Shown here piece after piece: positions 3,220-42,229 of a DNA stretch of 64,000 nucleotides. Every line of letters begins with the position of its first letter. Positions within the stretch are counted from its first letter, which is position 1. The DNA is from a virus, in IMG/VR virus record IMGVR_UViG_3300010401_000036, positions 3,382 to 67,381 of that record. One strand, given 5' to 3'. The position numbers were made by a program, and so were the translations under genes. The notes under the pieces were generated by a model that did not search any database, was not told the DNA's origin, and worked only from the letters and a program-made list of their open reading frames with translations.

Positions 3220-5433
3220 CTAAGCGAGGCCTCTTTTTGCCTCATATGCCAACTGCAACGCACGATTGGAAGAATGAACTTTGCGACTATTAGAAACGAC
3301 ATTCCCGCCTCGTGCAAACCCGGCCGATTCCGGTTTGCTCCTGTCATTCTGATCTGCCGCGCGCACCGAAGATGTCAGGAGTTTTGGCACGGAACTCGCT
3401 ACCCCAGTAGAAACGGGACTCTGCGTGCCAAGTGCCACGTTATTAGCAACGCGCCTCAGTCCGTCCATTATGGCCTTGTTCTTCATGGCCAGATCCAAGC
3501 CCTTGCGCATCTGGGTAAGGTCATTGGATGTCAACAGATCGGCGACATAGGAGGCGGTTTTGCTATCGACGCGCCCCATGATTTTCCGGGCGCCCATGGC
3601 CGCGAGATCGCCAGCGTATTTCTTGGCGGCAAGACTACCTGCCAATGATCCGCCAGCTACGTGCTTCCAGTCCCATCCGCTCTCGTACCCGCCAACAAGC
3701 CCACCAGCCAAGCCCGCCTCGATAAGCTGCTTCGCAGTGGTCGAATTGCCCATCGCATTCTTGGCGCCCTGCATGATCGTTTCGAGCGTCATGCGAGCCT
3801 GCATCTTGTTGAGCCCGTCCTGTCCGAACACGGCCAGTGCTCGAGCCCGCTCGTTCGGAGAATTGAACATCGCCTTGGTGATATCGCGGGTGTCGCTGAT
3901 ATTCTTGATGACGCGATCTGCCCAGTCTGAGGCGTAGCCTTCGCGAAACAGATCCTTTTCGTCTGGCTTCATCTGGCGCATGACATCGATGATCTGCTTC
4001 GGATCGACCTTTTTCCCCGCGAGTTTTTGACCAGCCTCAAGGGCATTGCTTTCATTGAAATATTGCGACGCAATACCCCTGGCACTGCCATACGAAGGCA
4101 CGGCCTTGTCCAGTTCGCTACGGAGTGACTTCGCCAAGGTACCCGCGACCGACGACGTATCGCCCTGCCTCTTGGCCACACTGGCCATGCTGTCAAGCTC
4201 GCGCTTCACCGAGTCCCAATATTGCAGGTTCGGATACTGTGGGACCCCAGTTGGCTTAGTCTTGGTGAATTTGATCATGCCGTCTTCGACGGTCACGCCC
4301 GGATTGAAGGCCCCGTATCCTTCGGAAATCGCGCGGTCCTTCCCCGTCGTGACGGCACGCTTCATGGCATCTTCAAAGGCCGGACTCCCCATCAGCCTTT
4401 CGATGGTGGGGGAAATGATTTCGCGATCCCCCTCCTTGAAGGCCTTGGCATAGGCTGGTACCCGGCCAGCATCATATTCGGCGACGATCTGGTCTGAGGT
4501 CTTCCCAGCGTTTGCTCCACCAGAGACGAGATCCTTCACATCCTTGGCAACGCGCTCGCTTTGACCGAGGAATCGTTCGTTGAATGTGTTCTCAAGCTTG
4601 GCCCACGCTCCAGGATCGGTATTCCCGGCCGAACGCAATAGTGCCTGCGTCTTGCCGGCACCGAGGTCAGCCAACGTCACTGGCTCGCCAGCGCGCTTTG
4701 CTGCCAGCCAGTCTGCTGCTGTCATACCCTTGGCTTCGCCAGCCGCGATGGCCTCTTGGTCGCTCATGAGCGCTGAACCAAGACGGCGGGACGCTTCGGC
4801 TTCAGGGTCTTTCCAGCCTCTAAAGGCTCCAATGGCCTTTCCGACAACGGGACCGAGAACGGCACCAATGGCTTGGAAGACGCCCGCACCAGCACCGCCT
4901 CCAATGCCGCCGGTAACGGCACCTGAGCCAGCTCCGATAGCCCGCTCTGAGGCATCAGTACCCGCCCCGGCCCCAGCCAGCGCGCCATATTCAGCCCCGA
5001 CCTGAGCGCCCTTCAGAGCCGGCCGCAATAGCGCCGGAGCTCGAGCCATTCCAGCTTCTGGCAGAACCGCCATGGTAGGAATCGCGCCCGCAACTTCACT
5101 GGCGCCATAGACATAAGGGTGCTGGGTTCGTGCCGTTTCATCTGCGGCACGTTCGCGGGCTATCGATTCGTTGTACCGCTGCACAGCCTCCGGATCACCA
5201 GTCCAGTATTTGTAGGCACCCTTGATGCTGGTCAGGGGCGTCCCTGGGTCTGTAGGGCTTGCTCCACCAGCCTCGTCGATCGCCCGCAGCTCGTCAGCAA
5301 ACCCGAACGTCGCACCCTGCAGCGCGCCGCGGCCGGCAGCAGTCAGCTTGCCAACATCAGGCGCGGCTTCACCAGTAGCCCAATCAGGCGCCGACGCACT
5401 ATCCGCAGTTGCCCAGTCCGGCGCATCGGTCAC
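3220..5433 (-). CDS. internal virion / DNA ejection protein
   Basis: 737 aa, Ala/Gly-rich helical protein (RGALQGATFGFADEL-type N-terminus) at the end of the morphogenesis module. Confidence 0.7.
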   Translation of the reverse strand: MTDAPDWATADSASAPDWATGEAAPDVGKLTAAGRGALQGATFGFADELRAIDEAGGASPTDPGTPLTSIKGAYKYWTGDPEAVQRYNESIARERAADETARTQHPYVYGASEVAGAIPTMAVLPEAGMARAPALLRPALKGAQVGAEYGALAGAGAGTDASERAIGAGSGAVTGGIGGGAGAGVFQAIGAVLGPVVGKAIGAFRGWKDPEAEASRRLGSALMSDQEAIAAGEAKGMTAADWLAAKRAGEPVTLADLGAGKTQALLRSAGNTDPGAWAKLENTFNERFLGQSERVAKDVKDLVSGGANAGKTSDQIVAEYDAGRVPAYAKAFKEGDREIISPTIERLMGSPAFEDAMKRAVTTGKDRAISEGYGAFNPGVTVEDGMIKFTKTKPTGVPQYPNLQYWDSVKRELDSMASVAKRQGDTSSVAGTLAKSLRSELDKAVPSYGSARGIASQYFNESNALEAGQKLAGKKVDPKQIIDVMRQMKPDEKDLFREGYASDWADRVIKNISDTRDITKAMFNSPNERARALAVFGQDGLNKMQARMTLETIMQGAKNAMGNSTTAKQLIEAGLAGGLVGGYESGWDWKHVAGGSLAGSLAAKKYAGDLAAMGARKIMGRVDSKTASYVADLLTSNDLTQMRKGLDLAMKNKAIMDGLRRVANNVALGTQSPVSTGVASSVPKLLTSSVRAADQNDRSKPESAGFARGGNVVSNSRKVHSSNRALQLAYEAKRGLA

Positions 5434-19346: not shown

Positions 19347-19694
19347 TTATCGAGGTAGCCCCGCCTGGACGAAGGTGGCAACAAATACACTGGTTGCCGT
19401 CGCCGTGACGACATTGATTCGCATGGCCTGGACGGGAGTAGTGTAATTGGCCGTTGCATTGACGCCAGTTAAGGCGACGATGTTCCACCATGTGGCATTG
19501 GCTGCGGCTGTGCCAAGTGTTCCCAGCGTTCCAAGATCAATTTTGTCAAATGTAACGTCAATGGTTGCGGTGCCGTTAACGCCGGTTGTGCCAGTGACAA
19601 CCGAAATGCCAACCTGAAATGGAGAAATCGTCCAATCTGGGAAGTATACGAACGTTCCAGTACCATTGACTGTGGCGGCTACCGGCATACCCAT
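19347..19694 (-). CDS. structural protein (beta-sandwich-like)
   Basis: Ends PVQAMRINV...TFVQAG; Thr-rich; lies in the head module. Confidence 0.65.
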   Translation of the reverse strand: MGMPVAATVNGTGTFVYFPDWTISPFQVGISVVTGTTGVNGTATIDVTFDKIDLGTLGTLGTAAANATWWNIVALTGVNATANYTTPVQAMRINVVTATATSVFVATFVQAGLPR

Positions 19695-19703
19695 CGCGCT
19701 ATC

Positions 19704-19949
19704 CTATTTCCTGCGCGGCTTGTCTGCCCTCTGGCTTACGCAGCCGCCCTCCATCTTCATCTCAATGCTTGGAAACTTCCGGTGCACCTTGGCTTTGACC
19801 TTGGCTTTGAGTGCTGGAGACCCGTGCTGCGAAACCCGCGCCAGCGCATTTCTGGCGTGACTCTTGTCTTCCACCGGATAACTGCGGTCAGGCCCGGCAA
19901 AATCCTTTGTCGGGATTTTCTTCCGGGCCTTGGCCGTCAGCTTGGTCAT
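19704..19949 (-). CDS. small basic virion-associated protein
   Basis: R.YPV.DK.HARNALARV motif typical of small phage head-region proteins. Confidence 0.7.
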   Translation of the reverse strand: MTKLTAKARKKIPTKDFAGPDRSYPVEDKSHARNALARVSQHGSPALKAKVKAKVHRKFPSIEMKMEGGCVSQRADKPRRK

Positions 19950-24511: not shown

Positions 24512-24690
24512 GTGGGTGTGGACTGCTCAAAGCATCTCAGAGCTGCCGCTGCTGGGCCCGGGACACTGTTTGCATAAATCCAGCGTCTAATAGTGGAAGT
24601 GTCGACTTCAAGGGCGGCAGCCATCTTTGTCTGCCACCCTCGATTACCATATAGCTTCTGACCTATAGAGATAAGTTCCTTAGCCGTCAC
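24508..24690 (-). CDS. small HTH DNA-binding protein coupled to ro60
   Basis: GTG start overlapping the 3' end of ro60; WQTKMAAALEVDTSTIRRW helix-turn-helix. Confidence 0.7.
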   Translation of the reverse strand: MTAKELISIGQKLYGNRGWQTKMAAALEVDTSTIRRWIYANSVPGPAAAALRCFEQSTPT

Positions 24691-25984
24691 GTTCGACCTC
24701 GTGAACGAAGCGCAACACACCTTCAGAAAACCCATCAATGTGGGTCCAAGCCCCATACCCAACGCCGTTCTTGTTCGACGCGACGTTGATCATATAGCCC
24801 TTGGCGAAAGCGTTTGGCACCGCATCGTGGCTCTGTTCGTCCGTGATGACGATCAATCGGTCAGCCCTCACATTGGCATTGATCCACGCCACCGCCGCGC
24901 CAAGATTGGTGCCGTTATGAGGCTGAGACCGCACAATAGCATCAACGCCAGCCATACCCCGTCGCGGGGGTACCTCAACAATTCCATCCGAGAACGTGAA
25001 TAGCCTAATATCGCCTGGAATTATCGCGCCCAACGCCGCAGCCGCATCGATCCGCCTCATGTCCGATTTCTGCGACAATGCCCAATCCATCGATCCGGAC
25101 ACATCGACCATCACCACAGTTTTTCCGAGATAGACAGGAAGTTCCGTGATTGCCTCGCAAAGCGCCTGATCAAGATATGGCTCAAACTGTGGAGCAGCCC
25201 TCGCCGCTGCGACGTAGCGGAAGGGAAACACTCGCTGCGCTCCGCCCTGCCGTGCTACAATTGCCTGCCGAACCAGATCGCTATCGACGCCAGCAGCCGC
25301 CATATTACGCAGGTTTCGGAGTAGCGCCAGATAGCCGATCCCGCTCTCGCGTAATAGCCGCTCGAAAGTCTCTCGCTTGTCTTTCCCGCCGGAAAGCGCG
25401 ACCTCCCAAGTGTCGGGAATCTTAAGCGTGCGATCCTTCACCCTCTTCCATAGAGCCGACTGCTCGTCATTGGCCGGCTTCGGCCGAGCAATTCGCAAAA
25501 CGTCGCGAAGCTTCACGGCCCCGTCTCGATCGTACTTTCCGAGTTGGTATTCGTCGAACTTGGCGAAGGCCTGAGCAAGACCCTTGCGCATCTGCCGTGG
25601 TACGCTCTTACGGCCGTTGCGCCAATAGACGGTCAGAAGCTCTCCCATCTCATCGGCGCGGGAGATCACTCGTGCCGTGGTGTCCGCCATCATCGCAGGC
25701 CCGGTCTTGCTGAGGATATCGAGCAAAAGCAGGGGGACATGCCGCAGGTTGAACACTTTGCGCGCCTCGATCGCCAGCGCCGCTAATTCGGCCGGCTTCA
25801 CCAGCGCTGCGGTTTCGGCGATTCGCTCAGCAATAGATTTGCCATCCTCGTAGAACTCGTTTTCCCACAATAGGCATGATAACACCGATCGGCGCAGTTG
25901 TTCGATCGGCTTGAGGCGACCGAAAGCCGGCGCTCCTTCAGTGGTCTTGGCGGTATTTTTCGGGGAAACATTCAAACGGGCCAT
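24680..25984 (-). CDS. rsr: Ro60 / TROVE-domain RNA-binding protein (Rsr-like)
   Basis: T.EGAPA, LLWE..FYE.G, FDEYQL.KY, TWE..LS, ALLRNLRN, PFR...A, and vWA MIDAS VDVSGSM...VITDEQ. Confidence 0.93.
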   Translation of the reverse strand: MARLNVSPKNTAKTTEGAPAFGRLKPIEQLRRSVLSCLLWENEFYEDGKSIAERIAETAALVKPAELAALAIEARKVFNLRHVPLLLLDILSKTGPAMMADTTARVISRADEMGELLTVYWRNGRKSVPRQMRKGLAQAFAKFDEYQLGKYDRDGAVKLRDVLRIARPKPANDEQSALWKRVKDRTLKIPDTWEVALSGGKDKRETFERLLRESGIGYLALLRNLRNMAAAGVDSDLVRQAIVARQGGAQRVFPFRYVAAARAAPQFEPYLDQALCEAITELPVYLGKTVVMVDVSGSMDWALSQKSDMRRIDAAAALGAIIPGDIRLFTFSDGIVEVPPRRGMAGVDAIVRSQPHNGTNLGAAVAWINANVRADRLIVITDEQSHDAVPNAFAKGYMINVASNKNGVGYGAWTHIDGFSEGVLRFVHEVERDG

Positions 25985-26020: not shown

Positions 26021-26175
26021 TGATCTAAGTGAGACTGAGCAAGTGACGAAATCAGTACATTTCAGTGCTCTACCACTGAGCTACCGGGACTTCTCCCGAG
26101 TTGGATTCGAACCAACGACCCCTGGCTCCAAAAGCGAAGTAACTGATTTCTGCAGCGTCAATCCCACTTAGATCA
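26021..26175 (-). ncRNA. yrlA: YrlA-type Y RNA with circularly permuted tRNA-like domain
   Basis: Ends pair (UGAUCUAAGUG/CACUUAGAUCA); inside, T-arm GUUGG-UUCGAAU-CCAAC, closed acceptor-like hairpin UCGGGA-GAAG-UCCCGG, then D-arm GCUC-AGUGGUA-GAGC; 36 nt upstream of ro60. Confidence 0.88.
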
Positions 26176-26378: not shown

Positions 26379-26402
26379 AAAAAGCCGCCCCGAAGGGCGG
26401 CA
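26379..26402 (-). terminator. Rho-independent terminator
   Basis: Minus strand GCCGCCC-TTCG-GGGCGGC-TTTTT after the Ig-like gene. Confidence 0.85.
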
Positions 26403-26930: not shown

Positions 26931-27009
26931 TGGCTCCTCGGGGCAGATTTGAACTACCGACCTTCAGACCGTTTCCGATCCGATGCTCTAACCGCTGAGC
27001 TACCGAGGA
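26931..27009 (-). tRNA. tRNA-like RNA with Asn-like acceptor stem and no canonical anticodon loop
   Basis: UCCUCGG/CCGAGGA-G-CCA acceptor, canonical D and T arms; anticodon arm UCGGA-UCGGAAACGG-UCUGA (10-nt loop, or 8-bp stem with GAAA tetraloop). Confidence 0.85.
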
Positions 27010-27012
27010 ATA

Positions 27013-27088
27013 TGGCGCCTCTGGCAGGATTTGAACCTGCGACCAGCCGAGTTAGAATCGGCCGCTCTACCAACTGAGCTACAGGGGC
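27013..27088 (-). tRNA. amber suppressor tRNA (anticodon CUA)
   Basis: GCCCCUG-UA-GCUC AGUUGGUA GAGC-G-GCCGA UU[CUA]AC UCGGC-UGGUC-GCAGG UUCAAAU CCUGC-CAGAGGC-G-CCA; one C4:A69 mismatch. Confidence 0.9.
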
Positions 27089-27097
27089 TTGACCTTG

Positions 27098-27478
27098 TCA
27101 CTTTAGGAGGGGCAATCCTTTCGTGATTGATTTGGCTTCATTGCGGGGAAGGGGTCCGATGCCGATCGCAGTGACTATTTGCGAACCATCGAAGTGCGGC
27201 GGCATGACGTGATTTTCCTCAATCACCATGGCACATGGCAGCTTAGCAAGCTTAGCGCGGTGGAAAAGGTCGCACAGCTCGCGCTCGCCGGGGACGGTCA
27301 GAACAATCTTGGTGCCGCCATCTTCAAGATAGGCCGCTGTGTTCTCTGGAGGGGCTGTAAGAAACGAATCAAGAAATGCATGGCCGGCTTGGGAAGCCGC
27401 TTTGCCAGATGTCATTTCTAGGTCTTCACGGATAATCGCATATGCAACAGGCTGATTTGAATGGTCAATCTAACGCAT
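27098..27478 (-). CDS. pth2: peptidyl-tRNA hydrolase type 2 (Pth2) with in-frame TAG at codon 3
   Basis: AYAIIREDLEMTSGKAASQAGHA, KIVL.V, VTAIGIGP, ITKGLPLL are Pth2 motifs; AAGGA-N8-ATG CGT TAG lies in the same frame, 21 codons above the ORF-track ATG. Confidence 0.85.
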
Positions 27479-27500
27479 TGATATCGTCCTTGGGTGAGGC

Positions 27501-27535
27501 TCCTGTAGGGCGAAACATAGCGTCGCCCTACAGGA
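27501..27535. repeat. perfect 13-bp inverted repeat upstream of pth2
   Basis: TCCTGTAGGGCGA-N9-TCGCCCTACAGGA with no U tract on the minus strand. Confidence 0.7.
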
Positions 27536-27548
27536 TTGCAAGTGGAAA

Positions 27549-28313
27549 TTACGCCGCCGGCAGCATTGCAATCTGAGCTGCGTCCATGGGCGCCACAGGC
27601 GCCATCTGTTGCTGGGCCTGAGCCTCCACAACGTCGAGATACCGGCCGGCATAATCGAACGGACCGACATGGCTCATGCGGTGCCCGATGTTGGCCCACA
27701 CCGACCCGCCGCACTGGCCCCACCGAATGCAGAATGACAGATCCTCGGAGATCAGGCCGCGGTCAGGCACGTCCATCTTTTCGAACAGTCGGAGAAGCCG
27801 ATTCGTTCCTGCTTGGCGCAATGTTTCGCCGGCCGGGTGCAGGGTCAACCGGGTGTCGATCAGCTCTGGAAACTTCTCGACCATAGCGGCGATCGCGTCG
27901 CGCCTGATCAGAGTGACACCGAAACCCACTCCTTCGACCCTCATGAAATCACCGCGGCGCTCCGTAAGTGGCGTACCACTGCCAGACCCAGCCCACGAAA
28001 GTGGCATTTTGCGTTGAGGGTAGATGGTACCGACGATCGGCTCGTTGAACATCAGCATGTCGGTAACCAACTCAGGCGGCCAGCCCATATCGCTGTCGAT
28101 AAAAAGGATGTGGGTGCTATTCGGAAGCGTATCGTACCAAATTGTCAGAGCCATCGACCGCAGTTCAGCAATATCCGGGAATGACAGAGTTGAGATCCCC
28201 CCGCCGATTCCCTTGCTCATCAAATGTTGACGAAGCGCGTGGGTGCTTAAAAATGTCGTCGCCGTGATAATCTGGCCAAATGCTGGAACAAAAATGAAGA
28301 TGTCGGTAGCCAT
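27549..28313 (-). CDS. GT-A fold glycosyltransferase
   Basis: THILFIDSD (DxD), GVGFG..LIRR, SEDLSFC.RW...GG.VW, HVG. Confidence 0.8.
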   Translation of the reverse strand: MATDIFIFVPAFGQIITATTFLSTHALRQHLMSKGIGGGISTLSFPDIAELRSMALTIWYDTLPNSTHILFIDSDMGWPPELVTDMLMFNEPIVGTIYPQRKMPLSWAGSGSGTPLTERRGDFMRVEGVGFGVTLIRRDAIAAMVEKFPELIDTRLTLHPAGETLRQAGTNRLLRLFEKMDVPDRGLISEDLSFCIRWGQCGGSVWANIGHRMSHVGPFDYAGRYLDVVEAQAQQQMAPVAPMDAAQIAMLPAA

Positions 28314-28840
28314 TATGAGGTCCTTCCATATTCCTTGTGAAGCCTGAGTGATGCTGTAACGTAAGCCGCATGAGCCTGTTCGGCCGTATCGAACATTCCG
28401 AGGTGTATTTCTTCGCCATCCGACTGGATAGTGGCTCGGAAACTGTTCTTATAGTCTCGTGTTACACCCTTGAATCCAGTGCTATTATCACATCGCCTCT
28501 TTCGATTCTTGGCGTTGTTAGCAGGGCTGCATTTTCTCAGGTTATCGATCCTATTGTCATCCCTATCGCAGTTTATGTGGTCAACCAACTCAGGCGGCCA
28601 CTCACCATGAACATAGAACCACGCCAACCTCGCTGCAGCATATCGGCGATTATTGATCGCTATTTGACGATAGCCTCCGCTATCAAGTCGGCCTGCAATG
28701 CATCCCTTTTGTTTTGGCATATATTTTGATGGATTTTTCCAAATAAAAATCCCAGTCTTTGGATCATAGTCCAAAAAATACAAAATTTCTTCATGCGTCA
28801 CTAAAGAGTTTGGCTTTCTCATCGCGGCATTCGGCTCCAA
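28313..28840 (-). CDS. HNH-AP2 homing endonuclease
   Basis: YDPKTGIF.W, VDHINCDRDDNRIDNLR, N.TGFKGV, HLGMFDTAEQAH.AY. Confidence 0.92.
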   Translation of the reverse strand: MEPNAAMRKPNSLVTHEEILYFLDYDPKTGIFIWKNPSKYMPKQKGCIAGRLDSGGYRQIAINNRRYAAARLAWFYVHGEWPPELVDHINCDRDDNRIDNLRKCSPANNAKNRKRRCDNSTGFKGVTRDYKNSFRATIQSDGEEIHLGMFDTAEQAHAAYVTASLRLHKEYGRTS

Positions 28841-29499
28841 AAGATATCTGTACTTTCTCTGGACCGCTCCAGAGCCTCATTTAGGATCAAAGCATAGTCT
28901 CTTGGAATGTTGAAATCTAAGGGAGACTGCCGGTGGACTAAATTAATTTCATTGTCCCATAGATAATAGCTATTCCAATATTTTTCCTTACCTAAAAGGC
29001 CATCGATCCTCTCCGAGTCAAACCGGAGGTATTCAACAAACGGATATTTACTAATAAATCTCAATTCTTGGCCGACTATCCACACGATCCATCTATGGTG
29101 GTGATACCCATAGAATGGCGGCGATCCGCCATCTACGCCGCGACCCAGCTCAGCGATTGGTGAGGGGCATTCAATGTACCCAGCGTTGCCAACCCGAGAC
29201 ATCTCCTTGATAAGGAGGAATGGGTTGTACATGTCCTCAAGCGTGTGGCGGCAGAAGACGAAATCGAACTCCTTGTCTGCAAACGGAAGTGGCTGCGTAC
29301 CGAGATCCACCTTGATCAGGTTGTCCACCCCAGGAACGTCCACAAAGTCAACGTAGACGTCCGCTCGCTTGAATGGCGCGTGGCCGGGCCCGACTTCCAG
29401 CACTCTTGCGTCTTTCGGGATGACTGTTTCGGTGAGGTAGTCCATGACGGACTGAATAGGAGCCCAATGCTTCTTGTCGTTTTGGGTGAGAGCCATCAA
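28819..29499 (-). CDS. class I SAM-dependent methyltransferase
   Basis: VLEVGPG, LPFADKEFDFVFCRHTLED..NP...KEMSRV. Confidence 0.85.
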   Translation of the reverse strand: MMALTQNDKKHWAPIQSVMDYLTETVIPKDARVLEVGPGHAPFKRADVYVDFVDVPGVDNLIKVDLGTQPLPFADKEFDFVFCRHTLEDMYNPFLLIKEMSRVGNAGYIECPSPIAELGRGVDGGSPPFYGYHHHRWIVWIVGQELRFISKYPFVEYLRFDSERIDGLLGKEKYWNSYYLWDNEINLVHRQSPLDFNIPRDYALILNEALERSRESTDIFWSRMPR

Positions 29500-29508
29500 A
29501 AAGTCCTG

Positions 29509-30666
29509 TCAGAGAAATTCAGCGTGATCTGGCATCTTCGTTGTGGGAAAGTCTACCTTCCCTTCTTTCCAATCGAATAGCCATTGGTTCGTGTGGGTTT
29601 GCAAGCACTGGGTGCCACAGCGATCCCGAGGGTCGAACTGATCACTGGCGAGATAGCGCACCATTTCCCAGTATCTGTCACTGGCGAAGATGTCTCTGAA
29701 TCGCGTGCTGACGATCGAATCAACATGGAATTTCTTGAACTTCTCGTTGAAGTGAAATCCGCAGCTCGTGATGAGGCCATTTCCGCTCATCTGAAGCTGG
29801 AAGGGAACGCCAAGGCATCGGCTGTAGTGCCGCTTGCCTTCATCAGCCAGCCGCGCCCATTTCACCACGACGCGGAACGTATCATCACCCATCTTCTCGA
29901 CTTCTCGGAAGGTGTCGTACAGAGCGTCGTACTTCTTGTAATCGACGCCAAGGTGACCCTCATCGTTATCGCTGCAATGCTTGTAGATCAGATACCCGGG
30001 CCTGATCTCCTGCGCCAGCTTAGCCAGCGGCATGATCTGATCATGGAACTGTGGCATTGTGACCATCTGCATGTTCACGACGCACGGCAGGTTATCGCGG
30101 CGCACGATTTCCATAGCGTCCTTGACGTTCTGGATAACCTGCCAGTAGTCCCGCTCCTTGAGGCCCATAATCTCCTTGTAGCGCGGCATCTCACCGGCCG
30201 AGAAGTTGAACCTCAGATAGGTGATGTGCGGAAGGATGCGCTCCAAAACCTTTTTCTTGAGCCGCACTCCGTTCGTTCCGATGCCGATCTTGATGCCGAG
30301 CTTGGCGGCGTATTCGATTGACTCCTCGTACCACGGCACAACCGTCGATTCGCCGTCGCTGATGAGACTGATGCCCTTGACGCCGATCTCAGCGGCATCC
30401 TCCAAAAACTCGAATGCGTGCTTCTTGGTGATCTCTCCGCCATCCTCAGAAGCCTGCATCGTCGCGAAACAAAAAACGCACGCCGCATTGCACTTTCGCG
30501 TCCACGCTACGTCCATCGTGACCGGGGCTATCCGCTCACCACGATCCCACGCCAGAACGCGATCTTTCCACCAGCCGACTTTGCTAGCATCAAGAATAAG
30601 ATCATTGACCGAGATGGTGGGAGACCCGGTGACGACGTGATCAAAGAACTCCGGTAGATTGCTCAT
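29509..30666 (-). CDS. radical SAM / SPASM-twitch protein
   Basis: CNAACVFC (CxxxCxxC), I.TNG, C-terminal C.......Q.SGNG....C and C...C. Confidence 0.9.
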   Translation of the reverse strand: MSNLPEFFDHVVTGSPTISVNDLILDASKVGWWKDRVLAWDRGERIAPVTMDVAWTRKCNAACVFCFATMQASEDGGEITKKHAFEFLEDAAEIGVKGISLISDGESTVVPWYEESIEYAAKLGIKIGIGTNGVRLKKKVLERILPHITYLRFNFSAGEMPRYKEIMGLKERDYWQVIQNVKDAMEIVRRDNLPCVVNMQMVTMPQFHDQIMPLAKLAQEIRPGYLIYKHCSDNDEGHLGVDYKKYDALYDTFREVEKMGDDTFRVVVKWARLADEGKRHYSRCLGVPFQLQMSGNGLITSCGFHFNEKFKKFHVDSIVSTRFRDIFASDRYWEMVRYLASDQFDPRDRCGTQCLQTHTNQWLFDWKEGKVDFPTTKMPDHAEFL

Positions 30667-41631: not shown

Positions 41632-41829
41632 TCAAGACTCTCCTGAGAGGTTGTCGCCATAACCGTTCATAATAGCCACAGAGACTGGATCGAACGGAAA
41701 CTGCTCCTTATCTGAACCAATCGCGGCAGCCTGAAATTCCTTGGAGGCGATAATGCGCAGCCCTATCTCGCGTAGGCTGCCTTTCCGCAGTGACCTCCTG
41801 AAGTCGTATCCATAGATGATGTCACCCAT
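41632..41829 (-). CDS. hypothetical protein
   Basis: Abuts both neighbours; GGAGGG RBS. Confidence 0.5.
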   Translation of the reverse strand: MGDIIYGYDFRRSLRKGSLREIGLRIIASKEFQAAAIGSDKEQFPFDPVSVAIMNGYGDNLSGES

Positions 41830-42003
41830 CTACTTTCCCTCCTTCGCCTCATAGGCGGCCTTCTCCAGCACGGCTTTGTCGCCACCGTAATTGCGAATGG
41901 TGTCCGTCACGTCGGCGTCGGTCGCCTTCTCTACGAAGGGCTGGAGTCCTCGGAGCCATGAAGGGTCGCTTTTGTGCGCTGCGTCACGATACGGATGGGC
42001 CAT
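41830..42003 (-). CDS. hypothetical protein
   Basis: AGGAG RBS before MAHPYRD; N-terminus resembles MAHPMQE of 40864..41631. Confidence 0.55.
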   Translation of the reverse strand: MAHPYRDAAHKSDPSWLRGLQPFVEKATDADVTDTIRNYGGDKAVLEKAAYEAKEGK

Positions 42004-42229
42004 TCTTGATCTCCTGTTTGATCTCGCGGAAGGATGGGCCTGATTGTCCAGCACCGGGAATGGCGCGAACGATTGCATCGTAAATATGCCGAGCATCATT
42101 GCCAGTGGGGCCGCTATAGAGACCGTCATTGTGGCGGCTGATATCCCATCCTTTTATGGCGTTCCAGATTGCATCGAATAGCGGATCGGCATCGAGCATT
42201 TCTGGCGTTGGATGTGGATATGATGTCAT
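41984..42229 (-). CDS. hypothetical protein
   Basis: P.P.ML..DP.F.AIW..IK.WDI....G..GND pattern; overlaps the portal stop. Confidence 0.6.
   Translation of the reverse strand: MTSYPHPTPEMLDADPLFDAIWNAIKGWDISRHNDGLYSGPTGNDARHIYDAIVRAIPGAGQSGPSFREIKQEIKNGPSVS

Follow-up and report, generated by a model that had tools for sequence, protein, structure and literature searches.

Here we describe a phage gene for the peptidyl-tRNA hydrolase Pth2 whose reading frame meets an amber codon at its third position, and we think it probable that this early UAG gates the synthesis of the enzyme, the main route to Pth2 being read-through by an amber-suppressor-type tRNA, tRNA(CUA), that the phage encodes directly behind the gene. 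The gene, pth2, lies in a stretch of 64,000 nucleotides (the window, which is the whole stretch of DNA analyzed), positions 3,382 to 67,381 of the virus record IMGVR_UViG_3300010401_000036, a single-contig soil-phage record of 67,381 bases that is 100% complete according to CheckV. The architecture of the leader, its conservation throughout the family and the joint change of stop codon and anticodon are established by comparison of sequences, and from these we infer that read-through occurs and is how Pth2 is chiefly made.

All the parts of the locus are read on the minus strand. A Shine-Dalgarno-like (SD) AAGGA (27491-27487) stands 8 nt before the leader ATG (27478-27476) and 17 nt before the ATT at 27469; the ATG is followed by CGT (27475-27473) and by the amber TAG (27472-27470), which is in frame with the coding region of pth2 behind it (27098-27469, 123 codons and then TGA at 27100-27098). 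This frame opens as ATT GAC CAT TCA AAT CAG CCT GTT GCA TAT GCG ATT ATC CGT GAA GAC CTA GAA ATG, the last codon being the ATG at 27415 (Met19 of the post-TAG protein) that gene callers choose as the start, and inspection of the minus strand found no in-frame ATG, GTG or TTG between the leader TAG and 27415. The gene of tRNA(CUA) begins 9 nt past the pth2 stop. A preliminary description of this locus, made from the letters alone, had reported the early in-frame TAG, the AAGGA-N8-ATG arrangement and the position of the tRNA, and every one of these details was confirmed in the sequence.

The protein encoded behind the amber codon has the sequence and the predicted fold of a Pth2. The read-through product matched the Pfam family PTH2 (PF01981) with an E value of 1.6e-19 and 70.7 bits (cut-off 23) over profile positions 4-115 of 115, this match beginning at residue 13 of the read-through product, ahead of the internal Met, and a genome-level search for PF01981 returned pth2 at 70 bits. 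Among the profiles of PDB structures, the Pth2 of Methanocaldococcus jannaschii (2zv3_A) was matched with an E value of 1.4e-21, and because the first position of the homologue profile was aligned with residue 3 of 2zv3_A, solved Pth2 proteins begin with strand beta1. The AlphaFold2 model of the post-TAG protein, built from a 55-sequence alignment (pLDDT 95.5), presents the Pth2 alpha/beta fold with a four-stranded sheet formed by residues 7-14 (PVAYAIIR, beta1, encoded at 27451-27428 on the minus strand), 53-59, 79-84 and 98-108. Foldseek aligned this model with the archaeal and eukaryotic Pth2 structures 2zv3, 3erj, 1q7s, 1wn2 and 1xty, with E values from 1e-10 to 2e-8 and query-normalised TM scores of 0.80-0.85. 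The earlier claim that the ATG at 27415 truncates the first Pth2 strand agrees with the model, in which beta1 precedes Met19, and the 105-residue product from that ATG would miss one of the four core strands. Catalysis by Pth2 presumably relies on the GK-motif Lys, the DAG-motif Asp and a Thr. K23 and T100 (post-TAG numbering) were invariant across the homologues, and the alignment has Glu in place of the DAG Asp in the clade of the window and Asp in more distant members. The phage clade thus shares its fold and the GK and TA.GIGP motifs with the archaeal and eukaryotic enzymes, and differs from them in a 4-residue insertion in the PPHF region, in the Glu found where most Pth2 proteins have the DAG Asp, and in its start, since cellular Pth2 proteins begin directly at beta1 without a stop-containing leader.

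A protein search yielded 117 homologues, and DNA was obtained for 116 loci of viral (30), genomic (6) and metagenomic (80) origin, which together with the window comprise 119 PTH2 copies, 100 of them unique. Upstream of the conserved M..GK motif the first in-frame stop of these 100 copies is TAG in 78, TGA in 14 and TAA in 8, and in 84 of them a start codon lies no more than 8 codons upstream of the in-frame stop (TAG 74, TGA 5, TAA 5). Of the 74 TAG leaders, 45 have exactly the ATG-X-TAG form, that of the window among them, and 65 have an SD tetramer 4-18 nt ahead of the leader start. Copies with TAG leaders span 37-86% identity and occur in 34 of the 48 clusters formed at 70% identity. The leader peptide itself is not conserved, its second codon being variously CTG, TTG, ACG, CGT, TCG and others. 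Behind the stop, several subfamilies keep the stretch as a peptide (for example ..TKEEIL..) without a start codon, which argues that translation must enter at the stop or just behind it; 46 of the 74 TAG-leader copies have no canonical start from the stop up to beta1. The leader TAG is followed by A in 42 copies, by G in 29 and by C in 3, with T in none of the 74, and, according to PMC6266110, efficient amber suppression favours a purine after UAG.

The stop and the suppressor are also linked in the genomes. ARAGORN detected a same-strand tRNA(CUA) in the flank (up to 3 kb) of 44 of the 74 TAG-leader copies, and four more TAG-leader loci (L057, L058, L107 and L108) carry tRNAs with a CUCUAAA loop, identified as matches of an RNA model and read by eye. 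Twelve viral records without a tRNA(CUA) in the flank were scanned over their whole length: tRNA(CUA) was present elsewhere in the record in six (L020, L022, L023, L027, L028 and L030), it was not found in the whole records of L012, L014, L015 and L016, and L005 and L021, which are fragments of 5-6%, had no tRNA of any kind. The total of TAG leaders accompanied by tRNA(CUA) is hence at least 54 copies, the other 13 TAG-leader copies without it being metagenome contigs for which the flank was covered. Where tRNA(CUA) lies upstream, the gap between it and the leader ATG is mostly 12-21 nt, and in 15 loci the pth2 stop is separated from the next tRNA-like gene by 2-9 nt. Scans of viral contigs for TAA leaders brought up TAG-leader relatives alone (L184-L187), of which L185-L187 were contigs already known and L184 has a TAG leader with a tRNA(CUA) 3.3 kb downstream. 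The co-occurrence of an early in-frame TAG with a neighbouring tRNA(CUA), proposed as a check in the preliminary description, is therefore seen on the same strand in at least 44 of the 74 TAG-leader copies, and the homologues beside tRNA(CUA) retain the stop and have no sense codon in its place.

The main evidence that the tRNA of the cassette decodes the leader stop is that stop and anticodon have changed together. In L040, whose protein is 83% identical to that of the window, the leader reads ATG ACT TGA ATT and a tRNA(UCA) occupies the same position, this tRNA sharing 86% identity with the tRNA(CUA) of L037 and 79% with that of the window. In L059, which belongs to another clade, a TGA leader has a tRNA(UCA) directly upstream. 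The cultured Agrobacterium phage Atu_ph07 (L159, MF403008.1) has the leader ATG ATT GGC GAA CAC TTT TGA ATT, and UCA is the sole suppressor among the 30 tRNAs found in it, as is likewise reported in the paper on this phage (PMC6102473). Its relative Phosso (L161, PV764938.1), a cultured Sinorhizobium phage, has the leader ATG AAG TAT TAG GTT and two tRNA(CUA). No mismatched pair, TAG with UCA or TGA with CUA, was present among the loci examined, and by this comparison the pair TAG/CUA has changed jointly to TGA/UCA in three lineages, those of L040, L059 and Atu_ph07. The earlier proposal that full-length Pth2 depends on a neighbouring suppressor reading UAG is supported by this joint change, by the linkage and by the conservation of the leader in 84 of 100 copies.

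The tRNA(CUA) of the window (27013-27088, minus strand; ARAGORN, and Rfam RF00005 with 69.9 bits) is of class I, with G73 and an encoded CCA, and folds into a canonical cloverleaf with a 7-nt anticodon loop, UUCUAAC, with U33, and one mismatch, C4.A69. Position 4:69 is unpaired in the suppressors of the clade of the window (C.A in the window, L037, L038, L045 and L046; U.U in L001), and the opal tRNA of L040 has U-A there. The nearest non-suppressor tRNAs to the cassette suppressors (n = 55; 62-80% identity) are those for Arg in 24 cases, Lys in 8, Thr in 7 and others in 16, a spread that does not point to one amino acid, and when the region was compared by blastn with GenBank phages the tRNA part alone was matched. 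Initiator tRNAs are marked by an unpaired 1:72 position and three G-C pairs at the base of the anticodon stem. An initiator-type amber tRNA was considered and rejected, given that G1-C72 is paired in the tRNA of the window, that its anticodon stem is GCCGA/UCGGC and that an SD-ATG lies 2 codons upstream of the UAG. As an observation on another genome, the jumbo record L014 (G001) contains one class II tRNA with an 8-nt anticodon loop with CUUA, which ARAGORN labels 'Lys|Stop'.

Three nucleotides after the suppressor tRNA there is a further tRNA-like element (26931-27009, minus strand), recognized by its fold and by covariation among homologues, which is a tRNA mimic without an anticodon. Its acceptor, D and T arms and its CCA are intact, but where a tRNA has its anticodon arm it has an 8-bp stem with a GAAA tetraloop; the acceptor opens with U1-A72 and the discriminator is G73. 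Two-sided changes were observed at all 8 pairs of the closed stem in 11 homologues, with 98.8% of the cells paired. The element scores 88.8 bits with the RNA model R1 and is mislabelled by ARAGORN as tRNA-Pro. At least 18 of 99 loci have mimics capped by GNRA loops immediately downstream of pth2, some in runs of two or three of differing types, this count being restricted to GNRA-capped cases downstream of pth2 because the script for mimics also flags true tRNAs with 3-nt loops in the minimum-free-energy (MFE) fold.

In the mechanism that we propose, ribosomes would initiate at the SD-preceded ATG 27478 and meet UAG at codon 3, where release factor 1 (RF1) would end translation after fMet-Arg unless tRNA(CUA) wins the competition; where this tRNA reads UAG, the ribosome would enter the Pth2 frame of 123 codons. 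The output of Pth2 would then be proportional to the ratio of mature, charged suppressor tRNA to RF1. Genes pth2 and tRNA(CUA), on one strand with a spacer of 9 nt, are probably carried by one transcript, and the common strand and the very short spacers of these loci suggest that key and lock are made together. The gate would report the maturation or charging of the tRNA, or its competition with RF1, and not the timing of transcription. The gated Pth2, its suppressor tRNA and the tRNA mimic without an anticodon would together form a three-part cassette, and as pth2 is the only evident client of the suppressor in the genome, the cassette looks self-contained. Our best guess as to its purpose is that the gate couples the output of a hydrolase of tRNA ends to the state of the cassette tRNA, or to the tRNA charging and termination of the cell. 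A wider and rather doubtful possibility is that the cassette acts both as sensor and as effector of tRNA ends, with the suppressor as reporter and the mimics as decoys or buffers against host factors or toxins that attack acceptor ends, the lock having been rebuilt in other phages with opal and possibly with four-base codons.

Several observations weigh against read-through by the phage suppressor as the main route. Our counts were taken over kin sequences and hence are not counts of independent events. The complete 543-kb jumbo record L014 (G001) has two TAG-leader pth2 genes and no tRNA(CUA) among its 66 tRNAs, a search of G002, G004 and G005, which are incomplete records, likewise yielded none, and the TAA leaders L072, L081 and L082 have no tRNA in the flank. 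Twenty-eight of the 74 TAG-leader copies have a canonical start behind the stop and ahead of beta1, which makes the enzyme possible without read-through. A start-like codon follows the leader stop in 37 of the 74, where some initiation or re-initiation is possible, and ATT and ATC occur there in a ratio of 27:2 as against 219:307 inside genes. This last bias, which far exceeds codon usage, indicates selection on the nucleotides and not on the residue alone, and because it could serve either the context of read-through or initiation at AUU, we retained as a rival an upstream start-stop reading frame followed by re-initiation at AUU 27469 or at a near-cognate codon, through which Pth2 would be made without the suppressor and the tRNA would be adjacent for another reason. 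We regard this as unlikely. Directly behind the stop, 27 of the 74 copies have ATT and 5 have ATG (L062, L063, L074, L079 and L097), with ATC in 2, CTG in 2 and ATA in 1, whereas 37 of these codons are not known starts (GTT 13, GTA 6, GAA 6 and others); a suppressor-independent start at ATT, raised in the preliminary description as a possible refutation, is therefore not a general rule, ATT not being universal after the stop. Moreover, re-initiation needs neither a strict in-frame layout nor TAG, and yet TAG is the stop in 74 of the 84 leaders, and it leaves unexplained that TGA stands exactly where the neighbouring tRNA reads UGA.

The other ways of accounting for the locus without a gate have, in our view, much lower probabilities. 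That the true protein is the 105-residue one made from ATG 27415, with no translation of the frame upstream of it, would fit the choice of the internal Met by gene callers in most homologues, and also the length of 105-106 residues of most clusters among the matches listed; we nevertheless consider it very improbable, since Met19 is itself a conserved residue, the Met of the DLxMxxGK motif, the shorter product lacks the beta1 strand with which solved Pth2 proteins begin, and the upstream YAI(I/V)R is nearly invariant at the protein level. A reassignment of amber throughout the genome ('code 15'), with pth2 as one recoded gene among many, would explain why the phage encodes a tRNA(CUA), but it is extremely improbable here: in a crude self-trained map of 98 tightly packed genes the stops are TGA in 59, TAA in 28 and TAG in 11, the latter genes packed tightly to the next one, no other TAG-interrupted coding frame was found in the 67-kb genome, and pth2 is alone in it in having an SD, ATG, 1-7 codons and TAG with a coding frame behind. 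Lastly, a lone in-frame stop resembles a defect, and one could think of a nonsense mutation that has left pth2 dead in this phage or of an error in the assembly. We give this next to no credence, as the stop is placed alike with respect to the start in 74 unique copies (37-86% identity), and as the TAG was unchanged, with 0 differences at a depth of 8, in a Logan assembly of the one run out of four that spans it, which possibly derives from the source sample. The same two observations led us to reject a sequencing error, which the preliminary description had named as a possible refutation.

Sixteen of the 100 unique copies have no stop-leader. They include distant homologues at 37-47% identity (L031-L034, L092, L094, L095, L099, L100, L104 and others), some of which are located on Pseudomonas megaplasmids, and many have upstream a conserved stretch similar to C-S-S-C-x-R-I-R-P with no in-frame start codon. 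In the three copies read by eye, L033 and L095 have an ATG in another frame and L100 has ATGs both in frame and out of frame. Homologues of this C-S-S-C-x-R-I-R-P type fit a frameshift or four-base-codon variant. The Pth genes of the phages XacN1 and Xoo-sp13 have an ordinary ATG start and no leader stop.

Around the cassette of the window, a 13-bp hairpin (27501-27535, minus strand) lies between the upstream gene, whose stop is at 27549, and the ribosome-binding site of pth2, 9 nt ahead of its SD. With -25.8 kcal/mol (z -6.3) it was not equalled by any of 200 shuffles; it has no T-run, was absent from the output of the terminator scan and may be a processing or stability element. In many relatives its position is taken by tRNA(CUA). 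Downstream, a terminator-like GC hairpin with a T-run at 26384-26401 (minus strand), after a small open reading frame (26420-26737/26899), probably ends the transcription unit that contains pth2 and the two tRNA-like genes. The region upstream of the cassette (27549-30666, minus strand) encodes a glycosyltransferase-like protein (PHROG 1574/34859), an HNH endonuclease, a methyltransferase and a radical SAM protein. Likewise on the minus strand, a TROVE/Ro60-vWA gene (24680-25984; Pfam TROVE, E = 2.1e-15) is preceded directly by a Y-RNA-like (YrlA) tRNA-like domain (26061-26124; 43.4 bits, E = 6.9e-8, under the gathering score of 69), and the two look like a phage Rsr/Y-RNA module beside the Pth2 cassette. 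Elsewhere in the genome, the reading frame of two of the 11 TAG-terminated genes continues in the gene that follows (19704-19949 with 19347-19694, and 41830-42129 with 41632-41829, both pairs on the minus strand), and amber read-through would fuse them into 81+115 residues (base after TAG G) and 99+65 residues (A). Two such pairs among 11 genes are within chance (1 in 3), and PHROGs and Pfam gave no sign on read-through of these two genes.

Pth enzymes recycle dropped-off peptidyl-tRNA and reverse the acetylation of tRNA by TacT toxins (PMC9241777). Phage PTH2 genes were grouped with RNA-repair and ribosome-rescue genes by Iyer et al. 2021 (PMC7824862); the jumbo-phage PTH2 of that work is of the same family and is discussed with RNA-repair genes and TROVE/Ro proteins, which are also neighbours here, and their paper describes no leader stop and has 0 occurrences of the word 'suppressor'. 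Stop-recoded phages with their own suppressor tRNAs, reading TAG as Gln ('code 15'), have reportedly been described among crAss-like, Lak and other phages (10.1101/2021.08.26.457843 and PMC9523058). As in those phages, the in-frame stop of a phage gene would here be read by a phage suppressor tRNA in a standard-code host. Unlike them, the genome of the window has one gene with an in-frame TAG and uses TAG as an ordinary stop in 11 of 98 genes, and in the leaders the stop comes 1-8 codons after the start, with client gene and tRNA adjacent and changing together.

Other systems resemble the leader in part. The gene prfB, which encodes release factor 2 (RF2), has an early in-frame UGA that serves autoregulation and is escaped by a +1 frameshift. 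As in prfB, an early in-frame stop would tie the yield of a translation-related protein to competition in the ribosomal A site; in prfB the product itself reads the stop, whereas here a dedicated tRNA would provide the escape and no action of Pth2 on the stop is known. The bar minigenes of phage lambda consist of an SD-AUG, one sense codon and a stop, and lead to drop-off of very short peptidyl-tRNAs, which links them to Pth. The leader shares this form, an SD and AUG followed by one sense codon and a stop, but whereas bar minigenes are not known to run in frame into a downstream gene or to come with a suppressor that matches them, the leader does both, and unlike in bar the second codon of the leaders is not one particular rare codon. 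Amber-locked phages have reportedly been engineered for biocontainment (10.1101/2024.07.29.605542), with gene expression dependent on a special amber-reading tRNA from the production host. These are man-made, while the lock and key described here are natural and are encoded side by side in the phage. In keeping with the initial statement that no such arrangement was known, our literature search found no stop-containing Pth2 leader paired with a suppressor tRNA. This window adds a small phage, complete in sequence, whose cassette is pared down to its three parts, and three independent amber-to-opal switches, one of them in a cultured phage.

These results have a consequence for annotation, as gene callers start most homologues at the internal Met, which leaves them about 18-20 residues too short. 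The GenBank coding sequences AUZ95035.1 (Atu_ph07, 'hypothetical protein') and XYS97424.1 (Phosso) start at this Met and miss beta1, the N-terminal extension and the stop leader. As both phages are cultured, the gate is directly testable in them. If confirmed, it would be a natural orthogonal switch of tRNA and stop codon that evolution has rebuilt with amber and opal, of relevance to translational control, to the conflict of phage and host over tRNA and to synthetic biology. In the case of XacN1, the authors who described it report that they did not find what its CUA suppressors act on (PMC5852040), and given that its Pth has no leader stop the present finding does not explain them. For the suppressor tRNAs of standard-code phages a concrete and conserved client can now be named, at least for this PTH2 clade, and if the cassette does act as sensor and effector of tRNA ends, the unexplained suppressors of such phages would have a function and the cassette would be a natural genetic switch operated by a tRNA.

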